From Dehalococcoidia bacterium (GTDB taxonomy: Bacteria; Chloroflexota; Dehalococcoidia; Bin125): a DNA stretch of 64,000 bases. The stretch is from NCBI GenBank assembly GCA_963662615.2, contig CAXXSR010000002.1, forward strand, positions 288,001-352,000, read 5' to 3'. Positions 35,979-40,527 of this stretch are shown one piece after another (positions within the stretch are counted from its first letter, which is position 1; each line of letters opens with the position of its first letter). Both the position numbers and the translations under genes were made by a program. The notes under the pieces were generated by a model that made no database searches, was not told the DNA's origin, and saw only the letters and a program-made list of their open reading frames with translations.

Positions 35979-36752
35979 TCAATCGCAGCGGGTGAGCACG
36001 TCAGCCGGCTGCGCCAGCCGCAGGGCCATGGTGTGCTCGAAGTGGGCTGCGAGTGTGCCATCTTTCGTGACCACCGTCCAGCCATCGCCGAGCTGCGTCG
36101 TCTCCGCGCTCCCGATGGTGGCCATGGGCTCGAGGGCGACGACCATGCCCTTGCGCATGATCATGCCACTGCCCCGCTTGCCGAAGTTGGGCATGCTGGG
36201 AGGCTCGTGCATCTCACGTCCGACGCCGTGTCCGACGTATTCGCGCACGACGCCGTAGCCCGCCCCTTCCAGCACCGCCTGAATGGCCGCGCCGATGTCC
36301 CCTTTGCGGACGCCCACGCGGGCGGTGTCAATCCCCACCTCCAGGGCCTCACGGGTGGCGTCCAGAAGGCGCTGGGCCTCAGGACTGACCCGGCCCACGC
36401 CCACGGTCACGGCGGCGTCGGCGACCCAGCCGTCGACGGTGGCGCCGAGGTCGATGGAGAACAGGTCGCCCTCCTCCAGGATACGATCGGTGGGGAATCC
36501 GTGGACGATCTGTTCGTTCACGGAGGCGCAGATGGTGTAGGGATAGCCCTGGTAGCCCTTGAAGGTGGGGACCACGCCCAAGCGCTCGTACTTCTGCTGC
36601 ACGTGCTGATCCAGCTCGGCGAGGCGGCGACCGGGGCGCACCATAGCCACCAGCTCCTGGAGCGTCTGGGCGACGAGGCGCCCGGAAACGCGCATCAGCT
36701 CCACTTGCGCGTCCGTCTTGAGGATAATCTGGCCGGCCCGGCTCTCTAGCAC
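35979..36752 (-). CDS. map: Methionine aminopeptidase type I
   Basis: SVNE..VHG, GHGVG..MHE, EPM, HFEHT. Confidence 0.97.
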
Positions 36753-37405
36753 GAGGGCTGCACCCTCTCTACGGCCGCCAGCAGGTCCCGCCGGACCCGC
36801 TGGGGCGGCAGCGCGCCGTTGATGCGGACCAGCTTGCCGGCCTGGTCGTAGTAGCGGATGAGCGGCGCCGTCTGCTCCTCGTAGACCTGCAGGCGCCGGA
36901 TGATCGCCTGGGGCTGGTCATCCTCCCGCTGGACCAGGCGGTCGCCACAGCGATCGCAGCGGCCGGGCGCCCGCGGTGGATCGTTTTTCTCGTGGTAGAT
37001 GGAGCCGTCCCGCGGGCAGCTCCAGCGCCCGCCCAGACGCGCCTGCAGTGCCTCCAGGGGCACTTCCAGAAGCAGGACCGCGTCCACCTGCTGTGATCGC
37101 CGCGCGAGGGCGCGGTCCAGCGCTCGAGCCTGCTTCAGCGTGCGCGGGAAGCCGTCCAGCGTGGCGCCAGCGGCCGCATCCGGCCGATCCAGGCGTTCCA
37201 GGAGCATGCGGATGGCCACGTCGTCGGGGACCAATTCGCCTTCGTTGAGGGACTGTTTGATCAGCGTGCCCAGGTCTGTCTCGTCTCGCACGTGTTCGCG
37301 GAAGAACTCTCCGGTCGAAATCAGAGCAAGCCCCTTCGCCTTCGCGAGATGCGCGGCCTGCGTGCCTTTGCCGGCACCGGGCGGGCCGAGCAGGATCAGG
37401 TGCAT
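36746..37405 (-). CDS. adk: Adenylate kinase
   Basis: GPPGAGKGTQ, DGFPR, QREDD. Confidence 0.97.
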   Translation of the reverse strand: MHLILLGPPGAGKGTQAAHLAKAKGLALISTGEFFREHVRDETDLGTLIKQSLNEGELVPDDVAIRMLLERLDRPDAAAGATLDGFPRTLKQARALDRALARRSQQVDAVLLLEVPLEALQARLGGRWSCPRDGSIYHEKNDPPRAPGRCDRCGDRLVQREDDQPQAIIRRLQVYEEQTAPLIRYYDQAGKLVRINGALPPQRVRRDLLAAVERVQPSC

Positions 37406-37408
37406 AGC

Positions 37409-39163
37409 TTAACGGATGAATCCCTCATAGTGCCGCATGAGCAGCTGCGCCTCCACCTGCTTCATAGTGTCCAGCGCGACGCCCACCACGATCAATAAGC
37501 CCACGCTGGAGAGGGTCAACGAGCGGCTGTCCGGGATGAACTCCGTGGTCAGAAACGGGACGATGGCGACGAAGCCCAGGAACAGGGCGCCGGCGAAGGT
37601 AATACGGAAGAGGACGCGGTTGATGTAGTCCTGCGTGGGCCGCCCCGGCCGGATGCCGGGGACGAACCCGCCCTGCTTCTGCAGATTCTCCGCCAGATTC
37701 TGCTGCTGGAAGGTGATCAGCGTGTAGAAGAAGGTGAAGATCACGACCAGGAGGAAGGAGAGCGCCCAGTAGAGCGGGCGGCCGGGCGAAAAGTTGGTCT
37801 GCACCCAGTTCGCGGCGCGGGCGATCCAGGCCGGCCGCTCGCCCACTGTTTGTCCTTCCACTTCGGGCGTGAAGGCGCTGTCGGGCTCATCGAGATGGGT
37901 AGGCACCCGGGTGGCGGCGATGAAGGTCCCCTCAAGATCTTCGAGCTGGATGAGCTTCGATCCGAGATCGTTGTTCTCCACGGTCCAGGTGGGGAGGAAT
38001 TCGCCGGTGGTCGCGTCCAGGCGGGTCTCGACGAACGTCAAGACGTCGGCGTCGCTGTCGCCGTTGATGCGATCGAGCACGTCGCCGAAGGTGTCGTCCG
38101 CGGCGGCATAGCTGATCTCCGCGTCGTTGACGCGGAAGCGGCCCTCCGGGCTGATCGCGGGGAACGCGTCGACGAGGAGGATGTCCTCGGTCTCATCCTC
38201 GGCGAAGGGGACTTCGACCAACGCCTTGGTGCTGGCGTCGTCGCCGCCGGCCACGGCGCCCTCAATATAGCCGGCAATGACGGAGGGGAAGATGATGATG
38301 GAGAAGGCGAATATCAGCGGGATCATACCGGCGCTGTTGACGCGCAAGGGGATATAGCTCTGTCCGCTCTGGCGATACATGCGCCCACCGCGAAAGACAC
38401 TGCGGGCGTACTGGACGGGGATGCGGCGCTGGGCCTCCTGGAAGAAGACGATGAGAGCGATCAAGGCGACGGCGATGAAGAGGACGATGGCCACGCCGCC
38501 GGCGCCGGTGTCGCTGAGGCGAATGGAGTTAAAGAGGGTAGGGAAGCTGGCCAAGATGCCGCCGAAGATGATGAGGGAGATGCCGTTGCCGATCCCCTTC
38601 TCCGTGATCAACTCGCCCAGCCAGATCAAGAACATGGTGCCGGCCGTCAGGGAGATGATGGCGGAAACGGTGGGGAGGGCGTCGGATCCGCTGAAGCCAA
38701 TGCCGGTGATCGCGTTGGCGTTCTCCAGGAGCAGGAGCTGGCCGTATCCCTGCACGACGGCCATGGGGACGGCGGCCCAGTAGGTGTAGAGCTGGATGCG
38801 GTTGCGCCCCTGCTCCCCCTCGCGGGCGAGCGCTTGCAGCCGCGGCACCATGGGCGTGAGCAGCTGCATGACGATGGAGGCGGTGATGTAGGGATAGACG
38901 CCTAGGGCGACGATGCTGAGGTTCTCCAAGCCACCGCCGCTGAAGAGGTTGAGGAAGCCGAGCACCGGGTTGTTGTCCAGGGCGCTGTCCAGCTGCGCCA
39001 ACTGCACGTTGGGTACCGGGATGTGCGCCACGAAGCGAAAGATGATCAGCATGGCCAGGGTGAAGGCGAGCTTGAGCCGGACGTCTGGCTGACGCCAGGC
39101 GTCCACCATCGCTTGGAGCAAGCGTGGTCTAGTGGGACTCTGCGCTGCTTGCGCGCGCTGCAT
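37409..39163 (-). CDS. secY: Preprotein translocase SecY with large insertion
   Basis: LGVYPYITASI, GIGNGISLII, GMIPLIFA, PGIRPG, LLIVVGV; ~584 aa. Confidence 0.95.
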   Translation of the reverse strand: MQRAQAAQSPTRPRLLQAMVDAWRQPDVRLKLAFTLAMLIIFRFVAHIPVPNVQLAQLDSALDNNPVLGFLNLFSGGGLENLSIVALGVYPYITASIVMQLLTPMVPRLQALAREGEQGRNRIQLYTYWAAVPMAVVQGYGQLLLLENANAITGIGFSGSDALPTVSAIISLTAGTMFLIWLGELITEKGIGNGISLIIFGGILASFPTLFNSIRLSDTGAGGVAIVLFIAVALIALIVFFQEAQRRIPVQYARSVFRGGRMYRQSGQSYIPLRVNSAGMIPLIFAFSIIIFPSVIAGYIEGAVAGGDDASTKALVEVPFAEDETEDILLVDAFPAISPEGRFRVNDAEISYAAADDTFGDVLDRINGDSDADVLTFVETRLDATTGEFLPTWTVENNDLGSKLIQLEDLEGTFIAATRVPTHLDEPDSAFTPEVEGQTVGERPAWIARAANWVQTNFSPGRPLYWALSFLLVVIFTFFYTLITFQQQNLAENLQKQGGFVPGIRPGRPTQDYINRVLFRITFAGALFLGFVAIVPFLTTEFIPDSRSLTLSSVGLLIVVGVALDTMKQVEAQLLMRHYEGFIR

Positions 39164-39614
39164 CCAACTCCTTGACGGAGCCGCCGGCGGCTTCGATCTT
39201 GGCCCGCGCGGCCGCAGAGACCTTGGGCGCCTGCACCGCGAGGGGGTGATCGAGTTCGCCGCCGGCAAGCACTTTGAACGGCTCTTCGGCGCTCTTGAGG
39301 AGGCCGGCCTGCACCAGGGATTCGGCGGTCACCTCAGCACCGGCGGGGAAGCGACGATTGAGCGCGATCAGGTTAATGGGCGTGTACTCCACTCGTCGCG
39401 CGTTGGTGAAGCCGCGCCGGTGCGGCATCTTGCGAATGAGGGGCATTTGGCCCCCCTCGAAGCCCACGCGGAGATCCTTGCCGGAACGCGACTTTTGGCC
39501 CTTGAGGCCACGACCGGAATAGGTCCCGGTGCCGGAGGCGTTGCCGCGCCCGATTCGCTTGCGAGGCCGTTGGGCGCCCGTCGGCGAACGGAGATTGTTC
39601 TGGCGTAGCGGCAT
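39129..39614 (-). CDS. rplO: 50S ribosomal protein L15
   Basis: GRG..SG, GQKSRSG, FEGGQMP. Confidence 0.97.
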   Translation of the reverse strand: MPLRQNNLRSPTGAQRPRKRIGRGNASGTGTYSGRGLKGQKSRSGKDLRVGFEGGQMPLIRKMPHRRGFTNARRVEYTPINLIALNRRFPAGAEVTAESLVQAGLLKSAEEPFKVLAGGELDHPLAVQAPKVSAAARAKIEAAGGSVKELDAARASSAESH

Positions 39615-39837: not shown

Positions 39838-40527
39838 CTAGGCAGGCGAGTTCGGCCCCGTGTCCGCCACGGCCTGCTGGGCGGGCGCCGTCTCCGCAGC
39901 GGGTGCGGGCGGGGCGCTCTCCGCGGGGGGCGGGGCGCCTTCCCCCGCGGCGCCGGCGGTCGCCGCTGCCGTGGGGGTCTGCTCCGGGGCCGCAGGGGGT
40001 GGTGCCGGCAGGCGACCGGCGAGGCGCAGCCGTTCCAGCCGCGCCTCTCGTGGGTCGCGCATTTGACTCAGCCCCACCATGGTGGCCTGCACCACGTTGA
40101 TGACGTTGTTCGAGCCCAGGGATTTGGTGAGCACGTTGCGGACGCCGGCGGCCTCCAGGATGGCGCGCACGCCCCCGCCGGCGATGACCCCGGTGCCGGG
40201 CGCGGCCGGCTTCAGGAGGACGCGCGCGGCCCCGAAGTCCGCGGTGAGGACGTGCGGGATGGTGCCATTGCGCATGGGGACGCGGATCATGTTGCGTCTG
40301 GCGATGGTGGAGCCTTTGCGGATGGCTTCCGGCACTTCGTTGGCGCGGCCCAGGCCCACGCCGACCTGCCCTTTGCCGTCTCCGACGACAACCACGGCCG
40401 TGAAGGAGAAGCGGCGGCCGCCCTTGACCACCTTGGCCACCCGGTTGATGGCGACCACTTTCTCGGTCATGTCGTCGCGCGGGCGATCATCTCGCCCCGG
40501 GCGACCTCGGTCGTACCCTCTGACCAC
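39838..40527 (-). CDS. rpsE: 30S ribosomal protein S5 (Pro/Ala C-terminal tail)
   Basis: [15 protein letters not shown]. Confidence 0.97.

Follow-up and report, generated by a model that had tools for sequence, protein, structure and literature searches.

Why should SecY, the channel of the general secretion system, carry an additional domain in one group of uncultured Dehalococcoidia, where might such a domain have come from and what might it do? These questions are raised by a stretch of 64,000 nucleotides (hereafter the window) of a Dehalococcoidia bacterium (GTDB lineage Bacteria; Chloroflexota; Dehalococcoidia; Bin125; GenBank assembly GCA_963662615.2, contig CAXXSR010000002.1, positions 288,001 to 352,000). 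Its secY gene (37409..39163, minus strand), assigned on the basis of the list of open reading frames, translation, Pfam and structure-sequence alignment, encodes 584 residues followed by a TAA stop, whereas SecY normally has ~430-450 residues. The original prediction, made from the sequence of the window, was that the surplus is an acidic extracytoplasmic segment with a motif resembling that of flagellin and the flagellar protein FliD, possibly forming a folded domain at the translocon exit. We interpret the gene as a housekeeping secY that has captured a FliD-type domain, which might serve as a platform at the exit side of the channel. The identity of channel and domain is the part of this interpretation that we hold with high confidence; for the interpretation as a whole, function included, the evidence tips the balance modestly in its favor.

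The channel that surrounds the insert is a recognizable SecY. The Pfam family SecY (PF00344) is matched with 328.7 bits (cut-off 32.2) in two stretches split by the insert, and in a phmmer comparison with the sequences of solved structures residues 22-300 align to residues 8-285 and residues 452-584 to residues 292-424 of Geobacillus SecY (chain 5eul_Y; E 5.8e-92), so that both five-helix halves can be aligned to solved SecY structures and ~150 residues stand where the Geobacillus protein has ~6. The insert proper, delimited by alignment with six insert-free SecY and absent from the other lineages checked, occupies 37832..38260 on the minus strand (residues 302-444, 143 residues) and is translated in frame without a stop. 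It is preceded by a transmembrane (TM) helix of residues 279-299 (38267..38329, minus), aligned to 5eul_Y up to chain residue 285, which we take from general SecY topology to be TM7, a helix of the lateral gate. It is followed by a surface segment of residues 445-462 (37778..37831, minus), common to insert-free SecY and aligned to 5eul_Y from chain residue 292 onward, and by TM8 (37715..37777, minus; residues 463-483), likewise aligned to 5eul_Y. Translation and structure-sequence alignment thus bear out the predicted in-frame acidic segment of ~143 residues between TM7 and TM8, and its position in the TM7-TM8 loop of the structure-aligned protein places it on the extracytoplasmic side. In short, the protein resembles canonical SecY (Geobacillus, PDB 5EUL/6ITC) in a ten-helix core that aligns end to end, in operon position and in being the sole copy, and differs from it by the ~145 residues that replace ~6 on the trans side between TM7 and TM8.

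The insert is soluble in character. A cut of 149 residues contains 34 Asp and Glu against 8 Lys and Arg and no Cys, and lacks a hydrophobic stretch (maximum Kyte-Doolittle mean over 19 residues 0.54). The content of guanine plus cytosine (GC) is 0.63-0.67 across the insert, the same as in its flanks. The possibility that such a segment is an artefact or a removable element, i.e., a misassembly, a chimeric contig, an intein or a mobile element that is spliced out or disrupts the gene, comes to mind only because SecY is normally so much shorter; no observation was found to support it. The frame is open throughout, composition is even and the whole genome (G000) yields a single SecY match, that is, no second SecY. 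The junctions (...YIEG|AVAGG... and ...GERP|AWIA...) do not show the residues typical of inteins (Cys, Ser or Ala first; His-Asn followed by Cys, Ser or Thr), and no Hint or intein family was matched by Pfam in this SecY or in 24 inserts. An intein or mobile element was, therefore, rejected, in line with the original prediction. Likewise, contigs from three other studies span both junctions with 0-1 differences: those of runs X3 and X5 cover 37715-38308 (0 and 1 difference, respectively) and that of run X7 covers 37658-38308 (0 differences). The insert is not an assembly error, and related genomes agree (see below); we attach practically no probability to an artefact or a removable element.

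When the likeness required was lowered to 90%, single contigs of low depth, mostly from run X5, showed joints that skip 541-679 nucleotides around the insert (37738-38418). They match 35-42 nucleotides on each side, in conserved SecY blocks, with the letters between unknown, and the lengths skipped are not multiples of three. These contigs are probably secY of other organisms in the metagenomes rather than an insert-free form of this gene.

How widespread is the insert? Among the 65 genomes of the same GTDB order, which consists of one family with 10 genera, 64 give a full-length match to the insert profile (E 6e-51 to 1e-72), and the one that does not (G016) is an assembly of 79% completeness without any SecY match. 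Whole-genome searches found the insert in 23 of 24 other genomes of the family; 22 match contiguously over residues 1-584 with 71-79% identity, and in another (G001) secY is split over two contig ends, the insert included. A scan of one genome per species added 52 further loci, all titled as Dehalococcoidia or Chloroflexota metagenome-assembled genomes. Outside the family the picture is different. In all 16 other families of the class that were compared the two halves of SecY lie 0-27 nucleotides apart, and of 401 class genomes sampled from 88 families all 26 that belong to this family matched the insert over its full length, against none of the other 375. No contiguous match occurred in a sample of 120 other Chloroflexota genomes; where both SecY pieces were among the matches listed (31 genomes), the gap never exceeded 72 nucleotides, and for 88 of the 120 both pieces were not among the matches listed, so that a different insert is possible there. 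The genomes of the order are related and are not independent samples, and all of the organisms are uncultured. The insert is, thus, conserved in relatives, as one would expect if the prediction was sound, but mapping its distribution across the Dehalococcoidia shows a trait of one order and not of the class. We infer from these comparisons that it was acquired in the common ancestor of this order, for which, with 64 of 65 genomes inside and 0 of 375 class genomes outside, it forms a sharp molecular marker.

The origin of the insert was addressed with an alignment of 24 inserts (A1), which has a mean column identity of 59% and 20 invariant columns out of 147. Its profile, compared with 1.84 billion representative proteins, gave 144 matches at E <= 1e-3, consisting of insert-bearing SecY and fragments thereof, very long proteins with 6-13 matching stretches and proteins of FliD length with 2-3 stretches. 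FliD proteins were matched at whole-library E-values down to 1e-9. Of 64 matches with a length of 440-691 residues, 55 carry FliD_C, 51 FliD_N and 20 Flagellin_IN according to Pfam, and it is the module directly before FliD_C that gives all of the best single-domain matches outside SecY (26-42 bits). Within its own genome the only other match of the insert is FliD (E 6.4e-7). The comparison by hhalign agrees, both for the insert with the FliD of a class relative (95.3%, E 2.4e-8) and for A1 with an alignment of the 64 FliD-length matches, A2 (98.4%, E 6.4e-15, A1 columns 18-119). The motif noted earlier, GRFRVND...DRING, is located at residues 341-368, and the homology extends over ~85-100 residues of the insert, well beyond these 28 residues. 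Positions G42, V46, N47 and F60, as well as N68, are invariant in A1, I67 is conserved in at least 90% of the sequences, and all of them align to the same positions of FliD. They fit the signature of Flagellin_IN, which we take to be G-x-F-x-[VI]-N-G with a central I-N. Through one of the matches (P0037) the module maps to residues ~102-175 of the Escherichia coli FliD chain 5h5v, which presumably represent the D3 head domain of FliD.

Could this likeness nevertheless be a matter of convergence or composition, the insert being an unrelated invention of the lineage? Several results weigh against homology: at E <= 1 the Pfam family Flagellin_IN (PF07196) has no match in any of the 24 inserts, acidity is much higher in the insert than in the FliD modules, the single-domain scores against FliD are modest, and a comparison of the insert profile with PDB sequences gives no better than chance-level matches (best E 0.67). 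Moreover, A2 was drawn from the matches of A1 itself, and the E-value of the 98.4% comparison is not independent of the library search. The FliD of the same genome also has no match among PDB sequences at E <= 0.01, and more generally no Pfam family was matched in any of the 24 inserts at E <= 1. Against convergence stand the E-values for FliD in a calibrated search of the whole library, the identification by Pfam of 55 of the 64 mid-length matches as FliD, the extent of the match with motif and strands in the same order, and the fact that FliD is the only other match in the genome. An unrelated origin is, therefore, very improbable in our opinion. The likeness to the IN motif of flagellin and FliD that had been noticed in the sequence reflects real homology on the evidence of the A1 search and hhalign, and the core of the insert is, judging from these alignments, very probably a homologue of the FliD head module.

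This core, a FliD-head-like module of residues 336-419 (37907..38158, minus), was delimited by hhalign, hmmsearch and Pfam annotation of the matches and is homologous to the IN-motif module located just before FliD_C. The IN motif proper (38060..38143, minus; residues 341-368) has the form G-x-F-x-V-N ... D-T-F ... I-N. Insert and FliD head share the elements G-x-F-x-[VI]-N and D-[ST]-[FL] ... I-N, 3-4 strand-like segments and an end D-x-x-G-N-F-[IL]; they differ in that the insert is much more acidic, resides in a membrane channel and not at a filament tip, and is kept in genomes without a FliD match. The module is preceded by an N-terminal flank of residues 302-335 (38159..38260, minus), where, a nearly invariant V-P-F apart, variation is greatest and insertions and deletions are concentrated, and followed by a C-terminal tail of residues 420-444 (37832..37906, minus) with the pattern T-H ... 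D ... T-P ... E-G-Q-T-x-G-E-R-P, which lies mostly outside the FliD match. That the insert forms a folded domain, as was originally supposed, is likely in view of the homologous beta-rich FliD heads, the 20 invariant columns and the narrow range of lengths (142-152 residues in 66 unique sequences).

The leg domains of FliD (FliD_N and FliD_C) are absent from this SecY and its insert according to Pfam, which indicates a borrowed module and not a FliD. In PMC8533109, D2 and D3 of FliD are described as beta-rich head domains, D3 being a loop insertion of D2. If so, the two ends of the module should lie close together, which would make it graftable into a loop of another protein. The most likely origin of the insert would then be the capture of a fragment from a fliD-like gene, although both the donor and the event are deduced from present-day sequences.

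Some observations on the wider family of this module may be added here. The FliD of the same genome has 675 residues, with FliD_N and FliD_C, and is encoded outside the window at C2:~244898-246925 (L033:742-2769, plus), on the contig that carries secY and ~80 kb upstream of it. Of four long A1 matches that were checked, three carry 7-9 Flagellin_IN stretches (P0014, 2452 residues; P0017, 1515 residues; P0018, 2024 residues), and one of these has a TadE-like segment at its N-terminus and a VWA domain at its C-terminus. Judging from such architectures, the Flagellin_IN module occurs as well in proteins that resemble non-flagellar surface proteins. Another match (P0050, 723 residues) is a FliD with an F5/8 type C (discoidin-like) domain, likely carbohydrate-binding, inserted in its C-terminal part.

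A flagellar origin does not imply a flagellar function. Of the 25 genomes sampled from the family no more than 2 (the genome studied here and G009) gave a match to FliD_C, against 7 of 16 sister families, and a tie between insert and flagellum was, therefore, rejected. From these gene contents most of the order appears to have lost the flagellum. It is likely that a flagellated ancestor captured the module and that most descendants lost the flagellum but kept the insert, an order of events that we infer.

The insert has been retained with characteristic properties. Net charges range from -18 to -29 over all 24 inserts, with a median of -23, in a SecY whose core has an isoelectric point of 10.1. 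Columns that are conserved in at least 90% of the sequences make up 10 of 29 in the tail (segment 420-448), 21 of 84 in the module and 8 of 36 in the N-terminal flank, where the gap fraction is 0.08; this sample is dominated by one genus. The tail, adjoining the segment that leads into TM8, is thus the most conserved part, with E137, G138, Q139 and G142 (A1 columns) invariant, and the invariant residues that are specific to the insert comprise a Trp, ANVLT and the TH...EGQ tail. The insert has a median ratio of nonsynonymous to synonymous substitution rates (dN/dS) of 0.425, compared with 0.135 for the SecY core (253 pairs, 23 genes); the corresponding values in 184 closer pairs are 0.48 and 0.16. 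Synonymous sites are partly saturated. The insert is under purifying selection, approximately three times looser than that on the SecY core.

Such a pattern can be read in two ways. A FliD-type module may have landed in a permissive loop, where it was tolerated, and may be kept simply because its loss would disturb the folding or membrane insertion of SecY. The threefold higher dN/dS, the acceptance of insertions and deletions in the N-terminal flank and some loops, and the dispensability of the heads even in FliD (as reported in PMC8533109) are what would be expected of a domain of this kind. It is more difficult to explain in this manner why the insert occurs in 64 of 65 genomes and 10 genera without a decayed copy having been seen, why its length is held to 142-152 residues and its dN/dS well below 1, why 20 columns are invariant, some of them in a tail motif for which the FliD match offers no explanation, and why the strong negative charge persists in 24 of 24 inserts despite sequence variation. 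An entrenched domain of this kind is the main rival to our interpretation and seems to us possible, though less likely than not.

The alternative is a function at the exit of the channel, for which the cellular setting is relevant. No Omp85 was found in the genome (93.6% complete), in a search in which the control was positive in seven double-membrane bacteria; the cell, therefore, probably has a single membrane, with the TM7-TM8 loop exposed directly to the wall zone. The insertion site is at the end of TM7 on the trans side; this helix is one of two that form the lateral gate, and the plug rests nearby. A further change on the same side of the membrane was encountered in SecD, the gene of which lies outside the window (C1:1252290-1254035; L093:1988-3736; minus): within the extracytoplasmic domain, SecD proteins of the order contain an additional acidic segment, ~58 residues long (own residues ~73-131), which is present in the contiguous matches of the family and missing in all five sister families with both pieces among the matches listed (gaps of 6-18 nucleotides). 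This segment may have co-evolved with the SecY insert. Of three related ideas one was rejected and two found no support. The insert is not a substitute for SecDF, as all 41 genomes searched, from within the order and from elsewhere, contain SecD_SecF_C. A second extra segment of SecD (~197-252) is not specific to the order, because G025 and G034 match contiguously through it, and neither is an enlargement of SecF, because the sister families G033, G035 and G036 match nearly the whole query contiguously.

The scenario that we propose from these comparisons is as follows. In the ancestor of the order the single housekeeping SecY would have gained a soluble domain of ~145 residues in its extracytoplasmic TM7-TM8 loop. 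The core of this domain (~85-100 residues) would descend from the beta-rich IN-motif head module found in FliD and in some non-flagellar surface proteins and, after capture, would have obtained a strongly acidic surface and a new conserved tail (TH...EGQTxGERP) that joins the pre-TM8 segment. It has been retained under purifying selection even in members of the order in which no FliD was found. Its place would be the exterior of the single membrane, close to where the channel opens, to the plug and to the outward end of the lateral gate. In this position it could act as a built-in platform on the exit side and may influence gating, and it may hold emerging chains or dock extracytoplasmic partners, for example SecDF with its co-modified SecD. 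By analogy with other translocons such a platform is a tentative assignment, and we regard this kind of function as possible rather than probable.

Since the domain would face the wall zone, one may also think of a tether or adhesin that binds wall, S-layer or glycans and fixes translocons at sites of envelope growth; the original prediction likewise mentioned docking for envelope or S-layer assembly. Direct exposure of the loop to this zone, with no Omp85 found, is compatible with such a role. The same holds for the occurrence of the module family as 7-9 repeats in very long, surface-protein-like proteins with TadE-like and VWA domains, for the one FliD match with an F5/8 type C domain and for the link between FliD heads and adhesion made in PMC8533109. 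However, a domain of ~145 residues anchored in the plane of the membrane reaches only a few nanometres, no carbohydrate-binding family was matched by Pfam, and the invariant residues are mostly fold-defining positions and the tail beside TM8, without an obvious binding loop. A tethering role is, in our judgement, improbable.

Our interpretation of a captured FliD-type domain with a role at the channel exit has to be set against several findings that weaken it. More than one kind of donor gene is compatible with the matches, as FliD modules and non-flagellar Flagellin_IN repeats both match. The looser constraint on the insert, approximately threefold relative to the core, also fits a domain that is merely tolerated. 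Evidence for expression consists of one contig of 172 nucleotides (37802-37973, 0 differences) from run X20, an RNA library that may contain DNA, and this is too little to claim transcription of secY. Furthermore, the D2/D3 head of FliD is dispensable for filament assembly in Pseudomonas according to PMC8533109, and a chaperone-like activity, which had been suggested for the insert, is consequently not transferable from FliD to it.

Known translocons nevertheless offer parallels for an exit-side platform. The loop between TM7 and TM8 of eukaryotic Sec61, loop 7, is described in PMC3897919 and PMC8147068 as the only sizeable lumenal part of the channel, as a binding site of BiP and as needed for transverse gating of soluble substrates. 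The SecY insert shares with loop 7 of Sec61 alpha its topological site, a trans-side loop beside the lateral gate, and a platform would parallel it at the same position. The parallel is positional only: loop 7 is a short loop with a mini-helix, whereas an imported, presumably beta-rich domain would be present here, and no sequence relation is expected. A second parallel is found in Mycoplasma pneumoniae, for which a preprint (bioRxiv 10.1101/2025.04.25.650208) describes PrsA-like lipoproteins that form an extracellular dome over the Sec translocon. As in the present case, this concerns a single-membrane bacterium and a structure over the trans side, there of SecYEG-SecDF, which is thought in that text to couple export with folding. 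The dome is made of separate lipoproteins, whereas the domain discussed here is fused into SecY and is not PrsA-like. A full-text literature search, the scope of which did not include supplements, returned no SecY with an insert of this kind. To our knowledge, no SecY with a folded domain between TM7 and TM8 has been described.

More far-reaching, and in our estimate unlikely, is the idea that the Sec machinery has been remodelled on its outer side throughout this order. In that case, the FliD head in SecY and a co-acquired acidic segment in SecD would together form a built-in extracytoplasmic vestibule that catches or retains emerging chains or assists their folding, and that tunes the opening of the plug and the lateral gate.

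The genomic context of secY is that of an ordinary housekeeping gene. The frame encoding SecY is the minus-strand open reading frame 37409..39268, within which we place the start at the ATG at 39163 because the same Met (MQRAQ...) is common to all 22 full-length relatives, several of which have a stop codon just 5' of it. A ribosome-binding site, AAGGAG (39168..39173, minus), can be read directly off the sequence 4 nucleotides before this ATG. The gene occupies the usual position in the ribosomal operon between rplO and adk (S5-L15-secY-adk-map-infA), with S5, L15, adenylate kinase, an M24 peptidase (methionine aminopeptidase) and IF-1 as neighbors identified by Pfam. Directly downstream lies adk (36746..37405, minus; Pfam ADK 3.4e-45) and directly upstream rplO, encoding L15 (39129..39614, minus; Pfam Ribosomal_L27A 1.9e-17). 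The frame of rplO extends 35 nucleotides past the start codon of secY (39129-39163, minus), so that the two genes overlap, and the ribosome-binding site of secY is located inside the 3' end of rplO. Ribosomal protein S5 (39838-40527, minus) has 229 residues, of which those beyond residue 164, where the Pfam S5 domains end, form a C-terminal tail of ~60 residues of low complexity rich in Ala and Pro; the GC content of the DNA reaches 78% there. Long open reading frames on the plus strand across the insert (37850..38905 and others) are antisense frames in a conserved gene and in GC-rich DNA, and were not accepted as genes.

Few membrane proteins are as conserved as SecY/Sec61, and all solved bacterial structures that were matched in this analysis have short loops on the trans side. 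The insertion at a mechanistically sensitive site of a module related to the flagellar cap is, therefore, an unusual addition to a very conserved protein and illustrates clearly how the general secretion system can capture a domain of the flagellar system. If the insert is indeed a folded, selected domain at the exit of the channel, it would constitute a natural experiment on feedback from the far side of the membrane to the gating of the channel. It would then also inform on how unfolded chains are handled as they emerge in single-membrane bacteria without a periplasm and on how an essential channel tolerates the graft of a domain. Should the order have built a vestibule from SecY and SecD, this would correspond, within one polypeptide, to Sec61 loop 7 together with BiP or to the Sec dome of Mycoplasma. 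The donor would be FliD, itself a protein to which unfolded subunits are delivered at the distal end of a different export channel.

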